DNA from: a bacterium
Lineage (GTDB): Bacteria > SAR324 > JACQKK01
Assembly (NCBI GenBank): GCA_965240465.1
Contig: OZ251219.1
Span: forward strand, 320,001-384,000
Length of the DNA: 64,000 nucleotides
Direction of reading: 5' to 3'
How positions within the stretch are numbered: position 1 is the stretch's first letter; every line of letters starts with the position of its first letter. Below, one piece after another: positions 19,591-30,791 of this stretch. The position numbers and the translations under genes are program-made. Under the pieces are notes generated by a model, which made no database searches, was not told the origin of the DNA, and saw only the letters and a program-made list of their open reading frames with translations.

Positions 19591-21537
19591 ATGCGAAAAT
19601 TATCTCTCCTTTCAGCCAGTGTCTTCTCTCTATTCTTAGCCAGCTGTGGGGGCAGGGGCGGTGGAAGGTCTGCTGATACAGATTCTGATGGCATCTTTGA
19701 TAGCAAGGATTCGTGCCGCAACAGCTCCACAGGCTTCATCAGCACCCCCGAAACCGACTACGATGGCGACGGCTGCAAAGATAGCACCGAAGATGTAGAT
19801 GATGACGGAGATGGTTTAATAGAGCTTCACAATGCTACCGAGCTCAATAACATCCGCCATGATTTGGACGGCACTCACTATGATGACAGAACCAGTAATG
19901 AAGGCTCTAACGCGGGCTGTCCTACTACTAATCCCGTGGGTTGCATTGGCTATGAACTAGCCGATGACATTGACTTAGCGACTGACCCTGCTACCAGCGA
20001 CTGGGTACCTATCGCGGGGAATTTTATCGCTACCTTAGAAGGCAATGGTCACAGCATCAATAACCTAACCATTGACAGAGACTCTCTATCCGTGGGACTC
20101 TTTGAGGTCTTGGCTACTGAAGGCATAGTCCAAAATTTATCTTTTGTAGGAGGTTCAGTTGTTAGTAGATCTAATTCTAGCAATAGCCTTGTGGGGGTTC
20201 TGGTAGGCAAGAGTTTTGGAACAATATCCGATGTTTCTGTGGGGCTATCGGTTTCCATCAGAATGGTGATTGATTTTGGCACTGTGGGTGGCTTGGTGGG
20301 TGTTAATGCTGATGGCGGCACCATCCAAGGTAGCTTTGCCACTGGAAAGGCCGATGGAGGTGGTGGTAGTAGAGAAGCAGTAGGCGGCTTGGTAGGTGTT
20401 AATGAGGGCACCATCCAAGGTAGCTTTGCCACTGGAAAGACCGATGGAGGTGACGGTAATAGAGACGCCGTGGGCGGCTTAGTAGGTGTTAATGCTGGTG
20501 GCGGCATCATCCAAGGTAGCTTTGCCACTGGAAAGGCTGATGGAGGTGATGGTAATGCAGACTATGTGGGTGGCTTGTTGGGTTATAATGGTGAAAGCAC
20601 CATCGTAAATAGCTATGCCACTGGAAATGTCAGTGATGATGCTGGTGATGGAGACTTTGTGGGTGGCTTGGCAGGTTATAATGGTAGTGGAAGCACCATC
20701 CAAGGTAGCTATGCCACTGGCAAAGTTGCTGGCGGTGATGGTAATACAGATATTGTGGGCGGCTTGGTAAGTTATAATTTTCAAAGCAATATTGAAGATA
20801 GCTATGCCACTGGAGATGCTGATGGCAATAATGGTAATACAGACGTAGTAGGCGGCTTGGTAGGTTCTAATATTGGCAGCATCATCCAAAACAGCTATGC
20901 TACTGGCAAAGTTGCTGGTGGTGATGGTAATGGAGACGTAGTGGGCGGCTTAGTAGGTGGGCATTACAAAAGTGGCACCATCCAAAACAGCTATGCCACT
21001 GGCAAAGCTGATGGCGGTAATGGTGATGATGATAGAGTGGGCGGCTTGGTAGGTAATCTTTATGGTACGATCAAAAATAGCTATGCCACTGGCAAAGCTG
21101 CTGGCGGTAATGGTGATGGTGACCATGTGGGCGGCTTGGTGGGATATGTTTACTTTGGAATCCTCCAGAAAAATTATTCCCTCAGTGATGTTGATGGGGG
21201 TGCTGGAAACGATAATGTTGGCCGTTTAGTTGGCAGTAGAGAAGATAGTACAATGACGGCTTCCGACAGCTATTATAGTAATCAGAGTGCCTTTAATAAT
21301 AGTGGGACCGTATTAGACCTTGGGATCAGCAAAACCAACGATGAACTAAAATCCTTGGTTGACAGTAATACAGGTTGGGATACCAAAAACTGGAATTTTG
21401 GTTCAACAAGCCAATACCCCAGCTTAAAGTCCTACAAAGAGAATTCCATCGGTACCCAAATCGCAGGTGATCTACTCTGTGGACAAAAACCCACAGACGA
21501 CTTCGTTCAGTGTCCTACGCCTGCCCCTACGCCTTAA
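19591..21537 (+). CDS. TSP3/GLUG lipoprotein copy 9
   Basis: MRKLSLLSASVFSLFLASC lipobox; family motifs present. Confidence 0.92.
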   Translation: MRKLSLLSASVFSLFLASCGGRGGGRSADTDSDGIFDSKDSCRNSSTGFISTPETDYDGDGCKDSTEDVDDDGDGLIELHNATELNNIRHDLDGTHYDDRTSNEGSNAGCPTTNPVGCIGYELADDIDLATDPATSDWVPIAGNFIATLEGNGHSINNLTIDRDSLSVGLFEVLATEGIVQNLSFVGGSVVSRSNSSNSLVGVLVGKSFGTISDVSVGLSVSIRMVIDFGTVGGLVGVNADGGTIQGSFATGKADGGGGSREAVGGLVGVNEGTIQGSFATGKTDGGDGNRDAVGGLVGVNAGGGIIQGSFATGKADGGDGNADYVGGLLGYNGESTIVNSYATGNVSDDAGDGDFVGGLAGYNGSGSTIQGSYATGKVAGGDGNTDIVGGLVSYNFQSNIEDSYATGDADGNNGNTDVVGGLVGSNIGSIIQNSYATGKVAGGDGNGDVVGGLVGGHYKSGTIQNSYATGKADGGNGDDDRVGGLVGNLYGTIKNSYATGKAAGGNGDGDHVGGLVGYVYFGILQKNYSLSDVDGGAGNDNVGRLVGSREDSTMTASDSYYSNQSAFNNSGTVLDLGISKTNDELKSLVDSNTGWDTKNWNFGSTSQYPSLKSYKENSIGTQIAGDLLCGQKPTDDFVQCPTPAPTP

Positions 21538-21663
21538 GGCTACACACCCCCTTAACTACCTCTTGATCTTGCCTCCTTAGTTGCTACGATTGCCATGGTT
21601 GCTACCGTGGGAGATAGCACTTTCTGGCGGCACAGTCTTTCTTAGCTACTAAAAGGACTGACC

Positions 21664-23547
21664 ATGCGAAAATTATCTCTCCTTTCAGCCAGTGTCTTCT
21701 CTCTATTCTTAGCCAGCTGTGGGGGCAGGGGCGGTGGGAGGTCTGCTGATACAGATTCTGATGGCATCTTTGATAGCAAGGATTCGTGCCGCAACAGCTC
21801 CACAGGCTTCATCAGCACCCCCGAAACCGACTACGATGGCGACGGCTGCAAAGATAGCACCGAAGATGTAGATGATGACGGAGATGGTTTAATAGAGCTT
21901 CACAATGCTACCGAGCTCAATAACATCCGCCATGATTTGGACGGCACTCACTATGATGACAGAACCAGTAATGAAGGCTCTAACGCGGGCTGTCCTACTA
22001 CTAATCCCGTGGGTTGCATTGGCTATGAACTAGCCGATGACATTGACTTAGCGACTGACCCTGCTACCAGCGACTGGGTACCTATTGCGGGGAATTTTAT
22101 CGCTACCTTAGAAGGCAATGGTCACAGCATCAATAACCTAACCATTGACAGAGACTCTCAATTCACGGGATTATTTGGGGTCTTGGGTTCCGAAGGCACA
22201 GTCCAAAATTTATCTTTTGTAGGAGGTTCAGTTGTTAGTAGCTATAATTCTAGCAGTTATGAGAGCTATGCGGGGGTTCTGGTAGGCAGTAGTTTTGGAA
22301 CAATATCCGATGTTTCTGCGGGGCTATCGATTTTTGCCAGCGCGGCTAGCTCTGTGGGTGGCTTGGTAGGTTATAACAAGGGAAATATCCAAAATAGCTC
22401 TGCCACTGGAAATGTCGATGGTGGTGGTGGTAGTGAAGAAGCAGTAGGCGGCTTGGTAGGTTATAATTACGGCATTATCCAGGGTAGCTCTGCTACTGGA
22501 AATGTCGGTGGTGGTGCCGGTGATAGAAACTCAGTGGGCGGCTTAGTAGGTGTTAATACTGATGGCGGCACCATTCAAGGTAGCTTTGCCACTGGAAAGG
22601 CCGATGGAGATGCTGGTGATAGAGACGTAGTGGGCGGCTTGGTAGGTTATAATTTTAGAGGCGGCAATATCGAAGATAGCTATGCCATTGGAAAGGCCGA
22701 TGGAGGTGATGGTGAGCGTGATAGGGTTGGTGGCTTGGTGGGTATCTCTTCTATTGGTAGCCTCATCCAAAACAGCTATGCCACTGGCAATGCTAATGGT
22801 GGTAAGGGTGATGATGACTATGTGGGTGGCTTAGTAGGTAGGAATTACGAAAGTGGCACCATTCAAAACAGCCACGCCATTATCCGAAACAGCTACGCCA
22901 CTGGAAAGGCCGATGGCGGTGATGGTAATGAAGACTTTGTGGGTGGCTTGGTAGGTTCTTCTAATCGTTACACCATTATTCAAAACAGCTATGCCGCTGG
23001 CAATGCTGATGGCGGTAAGGGTGATGGTGATAGAGTGGGCGGCTTGGCAGGTAATCTTGATGGTACGATCAAAAATAGCTATGCCACTGGCAATGGTAAT
23101 GGCAGCAATGGTAATGGTGACTATGTGGGTGGCTTGGTGGGATATGTTTACTTTGGAATCCTCCAGAAAAGTTATTCCCTCAGTGATGTTGATGGGGGTG
23201 CTGGAAACGATAATGTTGGCCGCTTGGTCGGATATAACGATCAGGGAACAATTAGTAGCAATTATTATTATAGTGGGGGTAGCTTAGCTAGTGGTGATAC
23301 TGAAGAAAGACTTGAAGGTACTAATGAGGCTGAGGGTAAGGACCTTACTCAACTAGGAGCGTTGGATGTTAACACCACCGTTAAGGACTTTGGGGCAGGT
23401 AACAGTTGGAGTACTAACAATTGGCAGTTCACCAATACCAAATACCCCAGCTTAAAGTCCTACAAAGAGAATTCCAGCGGTGAACAAGTTAATGGCAAGT
23501 TACTCTGTGACCAACCCACCGACTTCGTTCAATGTCCTACGCCTTAA
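21664..23547 (+). CDS. TSP3/GLUG lipoprotein copy 10
   Basis: Same N-terminal ~165 aa as copy 9; different GLUG and C-terminal region. Confidence 0.92.
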   Translation: MRKLSLLSASVFSLFLASCGGRGGGRSADTDSDGIFDSKDSCRNSSTGFISTPETDYDGDGCKDSTEDVDDDGDGLIELHNATELNNIRHDLDGTHYDDRTSNEGSNAGCPTTNPVGCIGYELADDIDLATDPATSDWVPIAGNFIATLEGNGHSINNLTIDRDSQFTGLFGVLGSEGTVQNLSFVGGSVVSSYNSSSYESYAGVLVGSSFGTISDVSAGLSIFASAASSVGGLVGYNKGNIQNSSATGNVDGGGGSEEAVGGLVGYNYGIIQGSSATGNVGGGAGDRNSVGGLVGVNTDGGTIQGSFATGKADGDAGDRDVVGGLVGYNFRGGNIEDSYAIGKADGGDGERDRVGGLVGISSIGSLIQNSYATGNANGGKGDDDYVGGLVGRNYESGTIQNSHAIIRNSYATGKADGGDGNEDFVGGLVGSSNRYTIIQNSYAAGNADGGKGDGDRVGGLAGNLDGTIKNSYATGNGNGSNGNGDYVGGLVGYVYFGILQKSYSLSDVDGGAGNDNVGRLVGYNDQGTISSNYYYSGGSLASGDTEERLEGTNEAEGKDLTQLGALDVNTTVKDFGAGNSWSTNNWQFTNTKYPSLKSYKENSSGEQVNGKLLCDQPTDFVQCPTP

Positions 23548-23671
23548 GGCTACACCCTTAAACTACCGCTTGACTCTTGCCTCCTTAATTGCTACGGTTG
23601 CTACGGTTGCTACCATGGGAGATAGCACTTTCTGGCGGCACAGCCTTTCTTAGCTACTAAAAGGACTGACC

Positions 23672-25810
23672 ATGCGAAAATTATCCCTCCTTTCAGCCAG
23701 TGTCTTCTCTCTATTCTTAGCCAGCTGTGGGGGCGGTATAGATGCATCTGGAGGCACTGATACAGATTCTGATGGCATCTTTGATAGCAAGGATTCGTGC
23801 CGCAACAGCCCCACAGGCTTCATCAGCACCCCCGAAACCGACTACGATGGCGACGGCTGCAAAGATAATAGCAAAGAAGACCTCGATGACGACAATGATA
23901 GGGTAACCGATGATACTGACAAATGCGACAAAGGCACCCTTGGCTTCATCAGCACCCCCGAAACCGACTACGATGGCGACGGCTGCAAAGATAATAGCAA
24001 AGAAGACCTCGATGACGACAATGACGGCGTATACGATGTTAATGCAGAAGGCCACAAGCTAGACAAATGCCCCAAAGGCAGTTTATTCAAAAGCATAAGC
24101 ACCAGCACTGACCCCAACGTAACTATCACCGACTACGATGGCGATGGTTGCAAAGATGACGACATTGAAGACAATGATGACGACAATGATGAGGTCAATG
24201 ATGTTGATGGCGATGGCAACATTGTAGACCTATGCCGAAAAAGTGCTAATAAGAAATTTGTCAGCAACGACACCACCGACCGCGACCGCGACGGCTGCGA
24301 AGATGCCAATGACGAAGATCAAGATGATGGCAGTGGCAAGGATGAAGATAATGATGGCAAATTTGGCACTGACCCCAATAACTCCACTATTGAGCTTGAT
24401 AAATGTGAAAACGGCGATAAAGGCTGGACTAGTCAACCCAGCACCGACGAAGATGATGATGGTTGTCAGGATGATGGCGAAGATGTGGATAAAGACAATG
24501 ACGGTCTAATAGAGATTAACGATGCTTTAGAGCTAAACAACATCCGCTATGATTTGGCAGGCACTAGCTATGATGATAACACAGGTGAACCGTCTAGTAC
24601 TGGCTGTCCCTCTGCGGGTTGCAGTGGCTATGAACTAGCGAATGACATTACTTTTGAAGACCCAAACATCATCCCTAGCAACTGGGACCCAATTGGTGAC
24701 GACAGCAACCCTTTTACCGCTACCTTAGAAGGCAATGACAATACCATCCGCAACCTTGTTATAGTCAATAGTACCCAAACAGATTCCGGATTTTTTATAA
24801 AACTGGATGGGACAGTCCAAAACTTGTCCTTTGAAGAAGGTTCAGTTACCAATACGTACACCGATGACATTAGCGACAGCACTACAGGGGTTCTGGCAAG
24901 CTATAATAGTAGAACTGGAACAATATACAATGTTTCTATTGGGCTCTCTATCTCTGCCGCTGATAGAAGAAACATTGTAGGTAGCTCGGTAGCTAGTAAT
25001 ATAGGTAGCTTGGTAGCTAGTAATAGAGGCACCATCCGAGATAGTTCTGCTACCGGAAATGTTGTTGGCAGTGCCGGTAACAATGACCGGGTAGGTGGCT
25101 TGGTAGGTGTAAATTACGTTGCTGGTACCATCAGAAATAGCTATGCTGCTGGCAATGTTTATGGAAGGGATGGTAATGATTTTGTGGGCGGCTTGGTAGG
25201 TTCTTCTTATGGTACCATCGGAAATAGCTATGCCACTGGCAATGTTTATGGAGAAGGTGGTAATGACCAGGTAGGTGGCTTGCTGGGTTCTGGTGATGGT
25301 GCCATCAGAAATAGCTATGCCACTGGCAATGTTGATGGCGGTACTGGCGATGACTCTGTGGGTGGCTTGCTGGGATATGCTGATAATAAATATGCTTATG
25401 TAACCCTCAGTAACAGTTATTCCTTAGGCAATGTTGATGGAGGGGATGGTAGCGATACAGTGGGACGCTTGCTCGGCAAAAAAGGCACTGGACCTGAGAC
25501 AATTGCAATTACCAACAACTATTATAATAGTGGTAGCACCCTAACCGTCTCTGGCGAGGATACCGAACTAACCCTTGTAGCCGCTGAGGCTAAGGACAAA
25601 ACCAGCCCCGACCTAAAAACCTTGACTGCCAACACCACCGAAGCTGACTTTGGTGCGAATAATCGCTGGAATGTATTCAACTGGGATTTTGGTTCAACAA
25701 GCCAATACCCCAGTCTGAGGTCTTATGAAAAGAATTCCAGTGGTAACCAAATTAAGGGTGGATTACTCTGTAACCAACCCACCGACTTCGTTCAGTGTTC
25801 TACAAACTAG
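23672..25810 (+). CDS. TSP3/GLUG lipoprotein copy 11
   Basis: MRKLSLLSASVFSLFLASC lipobox; family motifs present. Confidence 0.92.
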   Translation: MRKLSLLSASVFSLFLASCGGGIDASGGTDTDSDGIFDSKDSCRNSPTGFISTPETDYDGDGCKDNSKEDLDDDNDRVTDDTDKCDKGTLGFISTPETDYDGDGCKDNSKEDLDDDNDGVYDVNAEGHKLDKCPKGSLFKSISTSTDPNVTITDYDGDGCKDDDIEDNDDDNDEVNDVDGDGNIVDLCRKSANKKFVSNDTTDRDRDGCEDANDEDQDDGSGKDEDNDGKFGTDPNNSTIELDKCENGDKGWTSQPSTDEDDDGCQDDGEDVDKDNDGLIEINDALELNNIRYDLAGTSYDDNTGEPSSTGCPSAGCSGYELANDITFEDPNIIPSNWDPIGDDSNPFTATLEGNDNTIRNLVIVNSTQTDSGFFIKLDGTVQNLSFEEGSVTNTYTDDISDSTTGVLASYNSRTGTIYNVSIGLSISAADRRNIVGSSVASNIGSLVASNRGTIRDSSATGNVVGSAGNNDRVGGLVGVNYVAGTIRNSYAAGNVYGRDGNDFVGGLVGSSYGTIGNSYATGNVYGEGGNDQVGGLLGSGDGAIRNSYATGNVDGGTGDDSVGGLLGYADNKYAYVTLSNSYSLGNVDGGDGSDTVGRLLGKKGTGPETIAITNNYYNSGSTLTVSGEDTELTLVAAEAKDKTSPDLKTLTANTTEADFGANNRWNVFNWDFGSTSQYPSLRSYEKNSSGNQIKGGLLCNQPTDFVQCSTN

Positions 25811-25868
25811 GCTAGACCCCCCCCCCCCCCTCCCCGACTGCTTGAAAAAGGCAGCCGAGCATTCTTCT

Positions 25869-25902
25869 GGGAGTGAGCTATACTCACTCCCTTTCTTTTT
25901 TT
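25869..25902 (+). terminator. Array-type intrinsic terminator
   Basis: GGGAGTGAG-ctata-CTCACTCCC plus T-tract. Confidence 0.9.
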
Positions 25903-25990
25903 GGGGACTGCATTTTGCTCTTTTAAGCACTTGATAAACTTATCGCCAATGAAGTTCTGGCTGACTGTGTTCAGTGTGTAACCACTAAAC

Positions 25991-26019
25991 TTGACAGTAG
26001 CTAATTTTTGGTGCATAAT
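25991..26019 (+). promoter_or_regulatory. Putative sigma70 promoter for copy 12 (duplicate of 12861-12889)
   Basis: TTGACA-17 bp-CATAAT. Confidence 0.7.
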
Positions 26020-26130
26020 AGGCAGTATGGGTTGTCTTGTGCTCTAAGGTACATCACCCCAAGGTACATCAATTTGTGACGGTTTATGTTAGATCATATC
26101 AGTCAAAATTAACGGATAGTAGGAAACTCA

Positions 26131-27846
26131 ATGAAAAAATTATCATTACTCTCAAGCATTTTTGTTATCACTCTGTTCTTAGCCAGCTGTGGCGGTAGTA
26201 AAGATAAGAAAGGTGTTGTAGACCCTGTTACTGATACCGATGGCGATGGAATCAACGATTTTGAGGCAGATGGCACCACCAAGCTAGATAGATGCCAATC
26301 AAGCGAAGACACCACCTTTAGAAGCACGGCCACCAACGACCGCGATCGCGACGGCTGCAAAGATGACGGCGAAGACAAAGATGACGACAATGATGGGATC
26401 AACGATGTTGATATAAACGGCAACGAGCTAGATAAATGTCCTTTTGAAAAACCCACTACCGATGATAATGGCGACGGCTGCGAAGACACCTCTACTGATA
26501 GCGATGGCGATAACATAAACGACGACATTGACGTGGATGATGACAACAACGGTCTGATAGAACTCACCGCTACTACCCTAACCAACATCCGCTACCAACT
26601 GGACGGCACTACCTATAAAACAAATGCCAGCGATACAGGCTCTACCATGGGTTGTTCTACTGTTGATCCCATAGGTTGCAATGGCTATGAAATAACCAAT
26701 GACCTTGATCTTGTTGGCAACTTTGAACCCGTTGCAGGGAATTTCATCGCTATATTTGACGGCAATAATAATACCATCAATGACCTAACCATTGACAATA
26801 GCACTCAGTACACTGGCTTCTTCACTACGGTGGCTTCTGCTGGTGAAGTAAGAAGTATAAACTTTGTTGGTGGCTCAATCACCAGTAGCTTTACCAGTGA
26901 TTCAAACAATGTTAGCTATGTGGGAGTTCTGGCAGGCAAGAATGAGGGAACAGTATCCGATATTTCTGCCAATCTTTCGGTTTCTATTGGTGCGGGCATA
27001 AGTAACAATACAGGTGGCTTGATAGGCGAAAATAGTGGTATCCTGCAGGACAGCCAATCTTCTGGCAATATCAGCGGCGGTACCGGTAACAATGATAATG
27101 TGGGTGGCTTGGTAGGTTCCAATAATGGTGGCACCATCCAAAACAGCCGAGCCACTGGCAATGCCAGCGGCGGTACCGGTAACATTGATAGTGTGGGTGG
27201 CTTGGCAGGTACAAATAAATCCAGTACTAGCATTATCCGAAACAGTTATGCGGTCGGTTCTGCCAAGGGTAATGCTGGTGAGGATGATAATGTGGGTGGC
27301 TTGGTAGGTTTTAATGGTAGCACCATCCAGAACAGTTATGCTATCGGTTCTGCCAACGGTGGTAGTGGTAATGACTATGTGGGTGGCTTAGTGGGATTTA
27401 TTTCTCAAGGAACCATCCTGAACAGTTATGCCTTAGGCGATGTGAATGGGGACAATGGAGCAGCCAGTGATAGAGTGGGTGGCTTAGTTGGTAAGGTGCT
27501 GGTTGGTACGATTTCAGGTAACTATTTTGATAGTGATAGTGGATTAATTGGTAATGAAAAAGAAACCTTTGCAGCTTCCGAAGCTCTGGGCAAAACCAGC
27601 GACCAGCTGAAAGCCATCAACAATGTTGCCCCCACTACTAATACTACTTGCACTAGTGCTGGGGGAACTTGGGATGGCACTGCATGCACCGATGGGCATC
27701 TGAACCTTAGTACCAACAACTGGGATTTCACTGCTGACAAATACCCCAGCCTGAAGTCCTACAAAGAAGATGCTAGCGATGTCCAAGTTGAGGGTGTTTT
27801 ACTCTGTAACCAATCCACCGACTTCGTTCAGTGTACTACAAACTAG
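26131..27846 (+). CDS. TSP3/GLUG lipoprotein copy 12
   Basis: MKKLSLLSSIFVITLFLASC lipobox; family motifs present. Confidence 0.92.
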   Translation: MKKLSLLSSIFVITLFLASCGGSKDKKGVVDPVTDTDGDGINDFEADGTTKLDRCQSSEDTTFRSTATNDRDRDGCKDDGEDKDDDNDGINDVDINGNELDKCPFEKPTTDDNGDGCEDTSTDSDGDNINDDIDVDDDNNGLIELTATTLTNIRYQLDGTTYKTNASDTGSTMGCSTVDPIGCNGYEITNDLDLVGNFEPVAGNFIAIFDGNNNTINDLTIDNSTQYTGFFTTVASAGEVRSINFVGGSITSSFTSDSNNVSYVGVLAGKNEGTVSDISANLSVSIGAGISNNTGGLIGENSGILQDSQSSGNISGGTGNNDNVGGLVGSNNGGTIQNSRATGNASGGTGNIDSVGGLAGTNKSSTSIIRNSYAVGSAKGNAGEDDNVGGLVGFNGSTIQNSYAIGSANGGSGNDYVGGLVGFISQGTILNSYALGDVNGDNGAASDRVGGLVGKVLVGTISGNYFDSDSGLIGNEKETFAASEALGKTSDQLKAINNVAPTTNTTCTSAGGTWDGTACTDGHLNLSTNNWDFTADKYPSLKSYKEDASDVQVEGVLLCNQSTDFVQCTTN

Positions 27847-27892
27847 GCTAGACCCCCCCCCCAACTGCTTGAAAAATAGAGCAGACCATTTT

Positions 27893-27925
27893 GGGAGTGA
27901 GTTAATACTCACTCCCTTTTTCTTT
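27893..27925 (+). terminator. Array-type intrinsic terminator
   Basis: GGGAGTGAGT-taat-ACTCACTCCC plus T-tract. Confidence 0.9.
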
Positions 27926-27955
27926 CTGGGGGGACAACCAATCTCTTTTAAGCAC

Positions 27956-27984
27956 TTGACAAACTGATCGCGATACCCTACACT
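27956..27984 (+). promoter_or_regulatory. Putative sigma70 promoter driving the non-coding segment
   Basis: TTGACA(27956-61)-17 bp-TACACT(27979-84), just after the copy 12 terminator. Confidence 0.6.
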
Positions 27985-27990
27985 CACATT

Positions 27991-28625
27991 ATCAAAACAT
28001 TTTTAGTGATCCAAACTGCAGTTATGCCGAACCTAGGCTGGTAAGGATAGGTTCGCTAAGGGTTTTAGATAACGAATGAAAGGGGATTGGTGGGTAGTGA
28101 CCGCCTGAGGTTCCGTCATACCGAAGGGTGGATCATGTGTGTCCTTTGTTGCCTTTTGGCATATGTTTTGGCACACGCAAATGACGAGGAAGATGAGGAG
28201 GTAGATTGCACCGAAATCTCTTCTCCCCTCCGCAAATGAGTAGAACTTAGGCAAGTCCTAGATTCCTGCCATTAAGGGATTAAAACGCGGATCAAGCAGT
28301 CGCAGAAACACTAGCGGGAGTTTAATAGCTCCGAAGGTCGTGGAACGCCGTTTCTGTTTTGGTGAGTACTTTTAGTACTTTTTCCAAGGTATAATTTCAC
28401 GCCTAGTACCGAGCTGGGACTGAGCAATTTTAATTAATTGCCAGAGCGAAAGCGAACGTCAGTCTCGGTTCACTTAGTGGCATCCTTTCGGTAGCCACTA
28501 GCGAAGCTGAGGTCGTCATTGCAAACCGTAAGACTTCGCGGGAGGACCGTGCCATCATCTCAGGGTGAGGATTTTTGAGAATAATGGAGCAAGCGATGAC
28601 ATTCCTCACCAAGCCTCTTTCATTC
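27991..28625 (+). ncRNA. Candidate large structured non-coding RNA (family not recognised)
   Basis: No credible ORF; upstream promoter; long end-to-end stem 28074-28101/28598-28625 with G-U pairs on the + strand; many nested internal helices. Confidence 0.55.
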
Positions 28626-28721
28626 TACCCCCCCCGACTGCACCTTAGGCTACCTCCCCCCCCTCACCTTGATTTCTCCATCACCCTGCTCTTAAAGGCA
28701 TGCCAGATGGCAGAAGATAAC

Positions 28722-28750
28722 TTGACAACACCCCCTCTGCCTGCCATGAT
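28722..28750 (+). promoter_or_regulatory. Putative sigma70 promoter for copy 13
   Basis: TTGACA-17 bp-CATGAT; GGAGG SD before ATG 28818. Confidence 0.6.
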
Positions 28751-28817
28751 GAAGACTGGCGATTTCTCAAAGCTGAGGAATGCCCTAGCCTTTCGCATCC
28801 ATATCGGAGGATTTCTG

Positions 28818-30791
28818 ATGAAAGAATTATCATTACTATCAGCCAGTTGTATTCTGGCTCTATTTTTAGCTAGCTGCGGGGGGGGTAGTAGCGGGGGGGG
28901 GGGTGGCGGCGGGGTTGTAGATACCGATGGCGATGGCATACCCGACAGCAAGGATTTATGCAAAAATAGCATTGACGAGAACTTCATCAGCAGTAGCACC
29001 ACCGACGCCGACAAGGACGGTTGCAAAGATGACGACCCTAACGGAGAAGACCAAGATCGTGGTAATGGTAAAGACAAAGATAATGATGGCAAGGTAGGTG
29101 CTGATGATAAATGTCCGCAAGGTGAAACTAACTGGACGAGCATAAGCACTAGCACTGACCCCGCTGTAACTATCACCGACAATGACAGCGATGGTTGTCG
29201 GGATGCTGGCGAGGATGTAGATGACGACAATAACGGTCTAATAGAAATTGCCACTGCTCTGGAGCTAAACAACATCCGCCACGATTTGGACGGCACTCAC
29301 TATGATGAAGATGAAGATGACAGCACCAATATAGGCTCTAATACGGGTTGTTCTACTACTAATCCCGTAGGTTGCAATGGCTACGAACTAGCTGGCGACA
29401 TTGATATTTCTTCCATTATCAACTTTGTTCCCATTGGTAGCTTACCCGATCCTTTTTCTGCTATCTTACAAGGTAATGATTATACCATCAGTAACCTAAA
29501 AATTGCCACCGACAATCCCACCAGATTCACGGGCTTTTTTGCGGTTTTGGGTACTAATAGCACGGTACGGAACTTGTCCTTTGAAATGGGTTCAGTTTCC
29601 AGTAGCAACGGTAATGCTACTTTTGATAATGTCAACTATGTGGGGGTTCTGGCAGGCACAAATAAAGGAACAATATCGGGTGTTTCTGCTGATATATCAG
29701 TTTCTGCCAGTGAAGATACCTTTAACTATGTAGGTGGCTTGGTAAGTCATAATAGTGGCACCATCAGTTCTAGCCATGCCACTGGCTCTGCCACTGTCTC
29801 TGCTGCCGGTGGTAAACTTAGTCTAGTGGGTGGCTTGGTAAGTGCAAATTTTGGCATCATCAGTTCTAGCTCTGCCACTGGCTCTGCCACTGGCGGTGGT
29901 GTTGGTAATAACTGGGTAGGTGGCTTGGTAGGTTATAATTCATCCACCATCCAAGATAGTTATGCCACTGGCTTTGCCACTGGCGGTGCTAATAGTGACT
30001 TTGTCGGTGGCTTGGTAGGTGATAATTTTAGTGGCACCATCAGTTCTAGCCATGCCACTGGCAAGGCTGATGGCGGTGGTGGTGGTGACTTTGTCGGTGG
30101 CTTGGTAGGTTATCATGAGTTTCACACCACCATCATCAGAAATAGCTATGCCACTGGCAAGGCTGATGGCGGTGCTGGTGATGACATTGTCGGTGGCTTG
30201 GTAGGTTCGAATGAGAATACCATCAAGAATAGCTATGCCACTGGCAAGGCTGATGGCGGTGCTGGTGATGACATTGTCGGTGGCTTAGTGGGATTTATTG
30301 CTAATGCTTCCACAACCATCAGTAACAGTTACGCCTTAGGAACTGTTGATGGAGGTGCTGACGGCGATGAAGTGGGTCGCTTGCTTGGCAAAAAAGGGAC
30401 TGGTAGTATTGGGACAATTACAATTACCAGCAACTATTATGATAGTGGTAGTAGCTTAACTGGCGAAAGTCCCCTATCCCTTCCAGATACCGAAGCTCTG
30501 GGCAGGACCAAAGCCCGGCTGAAAGCCAACAACAATGTTGCCCCCGATAGTGATACTGCTTGCAGTAGTGCTGGGGGAACTTGGAGTAGTGCTGCATGCA
30601 CCTATGGGCATCTGGACTTTAGTACCGACAACTGGGATTTCACTGCTGACAAATACCCCAGCCTGAGGTCTTATAAGACTACCACTGATACCAGCACCCC
30701 CCCCGTGGTCACCCAAATCGCAGGCGATCTGCTCTGTGGGCAATTACCCGAAGCTGACTTCGTTCAGTGTCCCCCCTCCACTACGCCTTAG
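28818..30791 (+). CDS. TSP3/GLUG lipoprotein copy 13
   Basis: MKELSLLSASCILALFLASC lipobox after GGAGG (ORF-track start 28575 is too far upstream); family motifs present. Confidence 0.92.
   Translation: MKELSLLSASCILALFLASCGGGSSGGGGGGGVVDTDGDGIPDSKDLCKNSIDENFISSSTTDADKDGCKDDDPNGEDQDRGNGKDKDNDGKVGADDKCPQGETNWTSISTSTDPAVTITDNDSDGCRDAGEDVDDDNNGLIEIATALELNNIRHDLDGTHYDEDEDDSTNIGSNTGCSTTNPVGCNGYELAGDIDISSIINFVPIGSLPDPFSAILQGNDYTISNLKIATDNPTRFTGFFAVLGTNSTVRNLSFEMGSVSSSNGNATFDNVNYVGVLAGTNKGTISGVSADISVSASEDTFNYVGGLVSHNSGTISSSHATGSATVSAAGGKLSLVGGLVSANFGIISSSSATGSATGGGVGNNWVGGLVGYNSSTIQDSYATGFATGGANSDFVGGLVGDNFSGTISSSHATGKADGGGGGDFVGGLVGYHEFHTTIIRNSYATGKADGGAGDDIVGGLVGSNENTIKNSYATGKADGGAGDDIVGGLVGFIANASTTISNSYALGTVDGGADGDEVGRLLGKKGTGSIGTITITSNYYDSGSSLTGESPLSLPDTEALGRTKARLKANNNVAPDSDTACSSAGGTWSSAACTYGHLDFSTDNWDFTADKYPSLRSYKTTTDTSTPPVVTQIAGDLLCGQLPEADFVQCPPSTTP

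Follow-up and report, generated by a model that had tools for sequence, protein, structure and literature searches.

Large ornate bacterial RNAs have been singled out as likely to do unusual biochemistry, and the structured RNA HEARO can be multi-copy in a genome. The closest described systems to the locus analysed here are ROOL, GOLLD and OLE. Recent structures of these three RNAs revealed unexpected RNA-only assemblies: ROOL forms an RNA-only 8-mer cage, while GOLLD and OLE form RNA-only homo-oligomers of 14 and 2 copies, respectively, part of OLE also binding proteins (PMC12286853). HEARO is described in the same source as a structured RNA of several hundred nucleotides (nt), 343 nt in one case (PMC12286853), ROOL averages 581 nt (PMC5737381), and OLE is reported as very highly expressed and held at the membrane by a protein partner (PMC3413148). 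Here we analyse a 64,000-nt stretch of DNA (the window; positions 320001-384000 of contig OZ251219.1, assembly GCA_965240465.1) from a SAR324 bacterium whose genome is a single contig of 1,599,138 base pairs (bp) with 45.4% G+C. We propose that window positions 27956-28625 on the + strand probably form a free-standing gene, one of seven paralogues, that encodes a large and highly structured non-coding RNA (ncRNA). A preliminary description of the locus had suggested an unannotated large ncRNA with its own promoter, possibly of a new class, and the seven paralogues, their conserved helices, the lack of an Rfam match and the non-coding character bear this out.

The SAR324 RNA resembles ROOL in size, in its many helices, multistem junctions and possible pseudoknots, and in being non-coding. 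However, ROOL occurs in several phyla, often near tRNAs or in prophages, whereas the new RNA is confined to one genome, lies beside lipoprotein or housekeeping genes, is present as seven diverged paralogues of two size classes and matches no Rfam model. The neighbours of the copies are GLUG-motif lipoprotein and housekeeping genes, phage similarity is absent, and a tRNA-Ser gene is found 2.3 kb downstream of the window copy (c1) only. GOLLD and OLE are likewise large, ornate, stand-alone ncRNAs, from which the new RNA differs by the lack of an Rfam match and of a phage context, blastn against phage and plasmid collections and four pattern scans of viral contigs being empty. HEARO, or omega-RNA of IscB-IsrB, differs in having an adjacent nuclease open reading frame (ORF) and in being part of a mobile element; no such nuclease ORF lies beside any of the seven copies, nor is there an Rfam match. 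The covariance models of ROOL, GOLLD, OLE, raiA and HEARO gave no match in the copies scanned. The RNA family is not a member of any described family; its kind, the large ornate bacterial ncRNA, is already known.

The locus is repeated in its own genome. BLAST returns five full-length copies (c1-c5; 100, 95, 93, 74 and 68% identity), the long form measuring ~640 nt from the predicted start, together with a 152-nt partial match that corresponds to a mini copy, m2. A covariance model of the 5' core recovers the five long copies and two more diverged ones, at 1328586 (+) and 1572151 (-). The two mini copies, m1 and m2, score 28-34 bits against this first model and keep the promoter type, the closing helix, the P2 loop, the GCAARUGACG strand, the P4 hairpin and a related 3' junction, without the ~325-nt central domain present in the long copies. 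The mini forms define a core of ~220-250 nt, to which the long forms add a peripheral domain of ~325 nt. The motif TGCACCGNAATCTCT has exactly seven occurrences in the genome, one per copy. When c1, c4 and c5 are aligned with their flanks, the similarity runs from ~5 nt upstream of the -35 box to the last positions of the 3' arm, the flanks being different; hence, the repeated unit is the promoter plus the RNA. Larger indels among c1-c3 fall within predicted hairpins, namely P2.1 and the hairpin at 28416-28466, the latter with a 26-nt insert in c2 (also seen in sequencing runs) and a longer insert in c3. Three DNA runs display paralogue variation only, plus one identical 175-nt contig from a second study; none of the runs listed for the sequence is recorded as RNA. 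The seven copies are diverged paralogues of one conserved, promoter-bearing, non-coding unit.

Each of the seven copies carries its own sigma-70 promoter with a strong consensus, TTGACA-17-TAnnnT, of which only 32 sites exist in the whole genome, counting both strands. The -35 context CTTGACAAAC occurs ten times, seven of them at the RNA copies, and one of the three remaining sites precedes a gene that we take to encode ribosomal protein S1. An extended version of this context, AACTTGACAAAC, is seen at 842814 of the contig, upstream of the gene that is S1-like by translation. In the window, the RNA gene follows a GLUG-motif lipoprotein ORF (26131-27846) that ends before the locus, and the spacer that contains it spans 972 nt, as compared to 124-320 nt for the other local array spacers as calculated from ORF coordinates. 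It is therefore the longest in the local array, the preliminary description having called it the only long one unlike the others, and the terminator and promoter from which that description started the element were both found. The terminator would mark the RNA gene as a separate transcription unit, and transcription would start near 27991. The parts of the locus, all on the + strand, are as follows.

27893..27926 (+): intrinsic terminator of the upstream GLUG lipoprotein gene; 10-bp stem at 27893-27916 plus a T-run.
27956..27984 (+): promoter; -35 box TTGACA at 27956-61, 17-nt spacer, -10 box TACACT at 27979-84.
27991..28073 (+): predicted 5' leader, partially conserved in the alignments (AUCAAAACAUUUUUAGUGAU, AAACUGCAG), with leader motifs kept in the mini copy m2.
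28074..28099 (+): 5' arm of the closing helix P1, paired in 7/7 copies, with compensatory changes and matched deletions in c5.
28097..28136 (+): P2 hairpin, with a stem sequence that varies by copy and a conserved loop UGAGGUUC(C)GUCAYAUMCCG at 28107-28125.
28137..28176 (+): variable hairpin P2.1, GUGUGUC/GGCACAC, tolerating indels in its loop and with double changes at 7/7 pairs.
28177..28191 (+): conserved strand GCAAAUGACGAGGAA, with alternative partners in the P2 loop (28111-28119) or at 28513-28522.
28188..28224 (+): P4 hairpin, with AGGAGGU (28196-28202) and UGCACCGWAAUCUCUU (28207-28222), both in 7/7 copies.
28225..28549 (+): central domain with many helices, in the five long copies only and absent from the two minis.
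28302-09/28350-57, 28416-23/28459-66 and 28475-81/28494-500 (+): helices of the central domain, which also includes, at 28446-53, a hairpin capped by GAAA and, at 28513-22, the 3' side of the long-range helix.
28550..28599 (+): 3' hairpin (CCAU..AUGG, UCUC..GAGA; helices 29 and 30, invariant) and conserved junction GAGCAAGCGAUGA, with a related motif in the minis.
28600..28625 (+): 3' arm of P1, where the similarity among copies ends.
28626..28715 (+): tail rich in C (39 of 90 nt) and poor in G (13 of 90), containing two C8 runs and lacking an intrinsic terminator.
28722..30791 (+): next GLUG lipoprotein gene with its own promoter TTGACA-17-CATGAT (28722-50), ATG at 28819 and, by reading, a lipobox LASC; outside the RNA.

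The closing helix P1, which the preliminary description had recognized as pairing 28074 with 28625 around a long domain, is the longest inverted repeat in the region. It joins 28074-28099 with 28600-28625 over 26 nt at 81% Watson-Crick pairing. An ungapped 26-nt window as good as this one appears in 2 of 200 dinucleotide shuffles of c1, so that in the single sequence P1 is only moderately unusual, suggestive rather than decisive. Its weight derives from the fact that the helix is kept in all seven copies despite sequence change, with c5 having undergone a matched loss of 4 nt in one arm and 5 nt in its counterpart. Across the copies, the helix comprises 20-26 bp and extends from ~85 nt past the predicted start to the 3' end. 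In m2 the same ungapped test is not significant (39-42 of 200 shuffles) because P1 of this copy has bulges. The P2 stem reads GACCGCC/GGUGGAUC in the long copies, AAAGUGCC/GGCACUUU in m1 and GCCUGA/UCAGGC in m2, in each case below the same conserved loop.

For the five long copies, the RNAalifold consensus contains 190 pairs in 30 helices, with 94.7% of cells paired. Double changes are found at 20 of the 190 pairs, as compared to 6.5 +/- 2.1 in shuffles (0 of 500 reach 20) and 3-8 when the partners are slid by 1-3 columns. In the seven-copy core, 16 of 40 pairs display double changes (5.8 +/- 1.7 in shuffles, 0/500; 2-5 when slid), including 5 of the 10 P2 stem pairs and all seven of the next hairpin; this core alignment was fitted to a covariance model, and the structures tested derive from the same alignments. 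On the + strand, the changes that maintain the helices are compensatory or compatible with G-U pairing. The consensus energy is -151.4 kcal/mol on the + strand and -116.8 kcal/mol on the - strand, i.e. 35 kcal/mol apart, and the + strand structure contains 142 G-U cells vs 16 A-C cells, so that the G-U pattern on which the preliminary description had based RNA pairing is present in the consensus structure as well. The preference for the + strand agrees with the direction of the promoter. As regards the stability of single sequences, the whole long RNA (c1) folds at -213.8 kcal/mol with z = -3.0 (20 shuffles), and the minis reach z = -6.3 and -7.4 on the RNA strand (200 shuffles). The opposite strands of c1 and the minis are also in excess, with z = -4.7 to -5.9 overall. 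The comparison with shuffled sequences, earlier suggested as a check, hence detects an excess, and for c1 single-sequence folding does not pick the strand.

Several of the helices drawn previously from the single sequence stand in the family alignment. The pairing TGTGTGTC/GGCACACG gains double changes at all of its seven pairs, TAGTGGC/GCCACTA has two compensatory pairs, and GCGAAG/CTTCGC has one, read from the alignment in c5. Others persist in part. CAGAAAC/GTTTCTG is present as an 8-bp helix that is invariant and hence uninformative; GAGGAG/CTTCTC is a helix, but its real register pairs GGAAGA-GA with UC-UCUUCU; GGGACTGA/TCAGTCTC forms six pairs, but these are invariant, and C28460 is peculiar to c1. 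The leader hairpin CGAACCTA/TAGGTTCG (28028-28055) is perfect in c1-c3 only. In contrast, the GGTGAGGA segment, thought to compete for the 3' arm, is deleted in c4 and c5, and this alternative fold is thus not conserved.

The conserved strand at 28177-28191 has two potential partners. Pairing with the P2 loop UUCCGUCAU (28111-19), the TTCCGTCAT/ATGACGAGGAA helix of the preliminary description, would form a pseudoknot; it is compatible with the alignment and has one compensatory event (GUCAU/AUGAC in the long copies vs GUCAC/GUGAC in the minis), but competes with a long-range helix between 28177-28187 and 28513-22. In the latter (consensus helix 11, 10 pairs), the strand pairs with UCGUCAUUGC at 28513-22, enclosing P4 and the central domain, with two wobble-compatible one-sided changes. 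A counterpart exists in the minimum free energy fold of m1 and is possible in m2 by reading. In full the two partners would be mutually exclusive, and a switch or partial coexistence may occur. The invariant loop and junction nucleotides would point to tertiary contacts or a partner; inspection of the conserved loops by eye found no convincing K-turn, T-loop or tetraloop receptor. A pairing of the P1 3' arm with the start regions of lipoprotein genes (AUGAAAG) was considered and dropped, the match being too short and too common.

The locus does not read as a protein gene. The longest frames across the region encode 50-73 amino acids, and a Pfam scan of five short frames (E ≤ 0.1) is empty. Lengths divisible by three account for only 5/17, 2/21 and 4/25 of the indels between copies, and substitutions lack a 3-base periodicity, in accordance with the earlier statement that no credible ORF is present. 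One oddity is AGGAGGU, invariant in 7/7 copies and able to pair with the 16S 3' tail, which is located at 772036. After a gap of 3-5 nt comes (U/C)UG CAC CGW AAU CUC UUY, in which the variable bases are synonymous (CGA/CGT, TTC/TTT). The start codon of this frame would be UUG in four copies and CUG in three, and the peptides share six residues only before stopping after 11-31 codons at unrelated positions. AGGAGGU is also a possible binding motif.

Downstream of the RNA gene, no intrinsic terminator is present in 28626-28715. The 90 nt that follow the unit are richer in C than in G in all seven copies, although c4 has only 14 C vs 12 G, and the C-rich tail of the window copy is possibly a Rho loading site. 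The alignment of the copies with their flanks shows nothing conserved 3' of the arm that could be an opposite-strand promoter. Within 28626-28670, poly-C and poly-A runs vary in length among the near-identical c1-c3 (C8/C8 in c1; C9-A5-...-C10-A8 in c2), and the tracts flanking these three copies look slippage-prone. Poly-C and poly-G runs are also seen after the stop codon of the upstream gene and in the signal-peptide region of the downstream lipoprotein gene (28868-28900). One contig in each of two runs from one sample joins 27862 to 28719 via 25 other letters; this is probably a paralogous array junction without the RNA gene rather than a deletion variant.

As to the genomic neighbourhood, each of c1-c4 comes immediately after a GLUG lipoprotein gene of the same orientation, and for c1 and c2 such a gene is also next downstream. 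Copy c5 has a UvrD-like helicase gene on one side and an AAA_15 ATPase gene on the other, m1 comes after a lipoamide-dehydrogenase-like gene, and m2 lies between an aromatic amino acid lyase gene and ATP synthase genes. Judged from ORF coordinates, four of the seven copies face a convergent downstream gene, and the RNA is therefore not a leader. Among 33 neighbouring proteins scanned, 13 carry the GLUG motif; arrays of such proteins include window positions 20092-30791, and one member read closely has a lipobox (…LFLASCGGG). The GLUG proteins appear to be a large surface-lipoprotein family of this 1.6-Mb genome. The m1 leader is ~160 nt longer than in the other copies owing to tandem 16-nt repeats, with about a dozen copies of the unit AGCATTAGAACATGCA between the promoter and the 5' arm of the closing helix (contig ~1328375-1328545). 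Downstream of m2, on the - strand, are tandem repeats of ~22 nt resembling GCCAAGTGCTTCGCTAAGTGCC. Two hypothetical ORFs next to the minis are unrelated, and one is a tandem-repeat artefact. A long purine-rich array also follows the CTTGACAAAC site at 607915, and the genome seems rich in tandem repeats.

Database searches return no relative of the family. At gathering scores, Rfam cmscan of the whole window finds two tRNAs only; at E ≤ 10 on 27800-28800 it lists six noise matches, scoring 16-24 bits, to RNA families of eukaryotes, viruses and Streptococcus, and at E ≤ 1 there is no match in the four other copies scanned. The novelty for which the preliminary description had called for this search stands, with no family match in any of the five copies. 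As side observations, the genome has a tRNA-Sec gene and just one tRNA-Ile/tRNA-Ala pair, a type known from the spacers of rRNA operons. BLAST detects no homologue in 40 relatives, and a genome of the same genus has nothing at E ≤ 10. In the latter, the helicase orthologue is only 56% identical at the protein level, the two genomes therefore being distant, and is directly followed by what reads as coding sequence without RNA-like motifs; a second synteny probe found no orthologue there. The 5'-core covariance model has a match in one of the 40 relatives at E ≤ 1, in the same-family genome G014 (E = 0.077), which was rejected as unrelated: it shows no family motif and lies within a multi-copy repeat specific to G014. 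This intergenic element, with 60 BLAST matches, has a short conserved stretch plus two hairpins, one GC-rich and one terminator-like; from the same region, a REP-like segment of 40 nt is also present in four or more further genomes of the family. In 63 other genomes of the order, the seven-copy model gives one partial match of 19 bits (E = 0.09, G002), discarded since it lies in what reads as GC-rich coding DNA. Among all 87 other genomes of the class, which are all the genomes of the phylum searched, neither this model at E ≤ 0.01 nor the core pattern has a match. Outside the phylum, a 21-mer pattern, which is not conserved in the minis and hence a weaker scan, hits one Xylanibacter locus in a collection of species genomes. 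The seven-copy pattern hits one locus in JGI metagenomes, set aside as it reads as coding DNA. In viral contigs, four pattern scans yield no locus, and a 16-mer yields 28 at roughly the chance rate by a rough estimate, none extending to the 22-nt motif. None of 30 pattern loci matches the seven-copy model at E ≤ 1, blastn against phage and plasmid collections is without a match, and a literature text search for the strings of three conserved motifs is empty.

Other described RNAs differ as well. RNase P RNA and group I introns similarly build large, optional domains onto a common core that a terminal helix closes, but the new RNA has its own promoters, interrupts no gene and gives no Rfam signal in its copies; the RNase P RNA of the genome is a single match of 256.8 bits at 225900-226344, outside all seven copies. 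For retron, group II intron and DGR (diversity-generating retroelement) RNAs, no reverse transcriptase was found in the genome or adjacent to the copies. 6S RNA is about 185 nt long with a closing stem and a central bubble, and hence differs from the new RNA in size and architecture. The 6S model RF00013 finds no match anywhere in the genome at E ≤ 1, a model that was positive in only 5 of 14 controls.

A number of observations weigh against a functional RNA gene. No true relative was found in any other organism searched, including one genome of the same genus, and a distribution this narrow would be expected of a lineage-specific RNA but equally of a young or selfish element; relatives of the same family carry multi-copy intergenic repeats of their own. 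The covariation comes from paralogues of one genome, amounting to ~4 independent lineages (c1-3, c4, c5 and the minis), and the double-change counts are inflated by the shared origin of structure and alignment. The - strand of c1 folds with a better z than the RNA strand (-5.9, 20 shuffles). No clear terminator follows the gene, and the expression, ends and abundance of the RNA are deduced from sequence in the one genome known to carry it. The mechanism is drawn by analogy. Considering both sides, we nevertheless judge a functional structured RNA to be likely, with nearly the same confidence as the gene assignment itself.

The main rival, improbable in our view, is a selfish or formerly mobile non-coding repeat (MITE-like, Correia-like or RNA-mobilised) at seven sites, with an incidental outward promoter and arms and a fold that is a by-product. 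Correia and MITE repeats are multi-copy, have inverted arms, may carry promoters and occur between surface-protein genes. The new element is likewise multi-copy in a small genome and has 20-26-nt inverted arms. Neither the same-genus genome nor any of the 86 further phylum genomes searched contains it, relatives of the same family have multi-copy intergenic repeats of their own, and c1-c3 are located in duplicated lipoprotein-array segments. Beside c3, a degenerate second copy of the pre-promoter module (GGACAACACCAATCTCTTTTAAGCACTTGATAA, with a spoiled -35 box) lies at 716938-716970, ~150 nt after the RNA copy and before the convergent stop of uvrB, which suggests that c3 may have arrived by duplication or recombination of an array segment. 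However, Correia and MITE elements have terminal inverted repeats, target duplications and mostly 100-300 bp, whereas here the arms are internal, the unit starting ~120 nt upstream of the 5' arm, and no target-site duplication or flanking direct repeat was seen by eye in the aligned flanks. It is also complementarity rather than sequence that is conserved: the arms diverge between copies yet remain complementary within each, with G-U tolerated on one strand only, which argues for selection at the level of RNA and not for transposase binding. Moreover, the copies are old (long copies down to 68% identity, minis at 28-34 bits) yet all keep the promoter and helices. A remnant of an RNA-based mobile element, the other option raised in the preliminary description, finds no backing either: no RVT_1 match exists in the whole genome by a search that was positive in three control genomes, the arms are not terminal, and, at E ≤ 1e-5, none of the 33 neighbouring proteins matches a transposase, an integrase, a reverse transcriptase or an RNA-guided nuclease.

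Less probable still is that the unit acts as DNA within the lipoprotein arrays, for instance as a site of recombination or gene conversion or as a cruciform, and serves surface-protein variation without an RNA function. This reading would account for the four copies that directly follow a GLUG lipoprotein gene in the same orientation, two of them inside arrays, and for the hypervariable poly-C and poly-A tracts flanking c1-c3; but three of the seven copies reside among housekeeping genes, the conserved promoter belongs to the unit, and a strand asymmetry of 142 G-U vs 16 A-C cells and 35 kcal/mol is unexpected for a DNA cruciform. We give marginally less credence still to a small-protein gene or translated leader, in which AGGAGGU would be the ribosome-binding site of a short frame. 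The invariance of this motif, its complementarity to the 16S 3' tail and the conserved first six codons with their synonymous changes are what such a gene would exhibit, but the frame covers less than 10% of the conserved unit, starts with UUG or CUG 3-5 nt past the motif, shares only six residues and has unrelated stops, and AGGAGGU is partly inside the P4 helix. Finally, the reading as a protein gene in decay, or as structure arisen by chance in a spacer of unusual length, is close to refuted. The spacer is the sole long one of its array and a single-sequence excess of z = -3.0 in 20 shuffles can be chance, yet there are seven copies with conserved boundaries, no Pfam signal, indels that are not in threes, no codon periodicity and compensatory changes far above the controls.

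If the locus is a functional RNA gene, as we favour, we propose the following mode of action. The RNA would be made in quantity, as its seven promoters share the -35 context seen before the S1-like gene, and its 3' end would be set by Rho action or by trimming back to P1. It would then act in trans as a stable folded particle, being neither a cis leader nor mobile DNA, an idea modelled on the RNA-only cage of ROOL. The invariant loops would be the surfaces that contact a protein partner or further copies of the RNA, as in OLE, ROOL and GOLLD, and by this analogy we favour a scaffold that binds a protein or its own copies. Among the functions open to a structured RNA, a scaffold or ribonucleoprotein (RNP) is our tentative first choice, a self-assembling or catalytic RNA is rather unlikely, and a regulator working by base pairing or sequestration is slightly more so. 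A catalytic role, or the sequestration of ribosomes or of a regulator through AGGAGGU, is possible. In a bolder version, which we hold to be doubtful, the RNA would be the founding member of a new ornate-RNA class with natural mini and expanded forms and a core of ~220-250 nt, closed by a terminal helix and containing a possible pseudoknot or switch, with catalysis or RNA-only or RNP assembly, and the products of the seven genes might co-assemble. Kept in seven copies by a genome reduced to 1.6 Mb, it would then be a principal component of the cell in an obscure lineage with a reduced genome.

In conclusion, we here describe a family of seven paralogous loci in a SAR324 genome that likely encode a large structured RNA. 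Bacterial ncRNAs of such size and complexity are rare, and an RNA of ~640 nt whose fold is well supported would add an independent example to the large ornate RNAs, the first from outside the usual phyla. The natural mini version marks the essential core, and the seven diverged copies within one genome supply covariation without the need for other species. That a 1.6-Mb genome spends ~4 kb and seven strong promoters on this RNA argues for an important cellular role.

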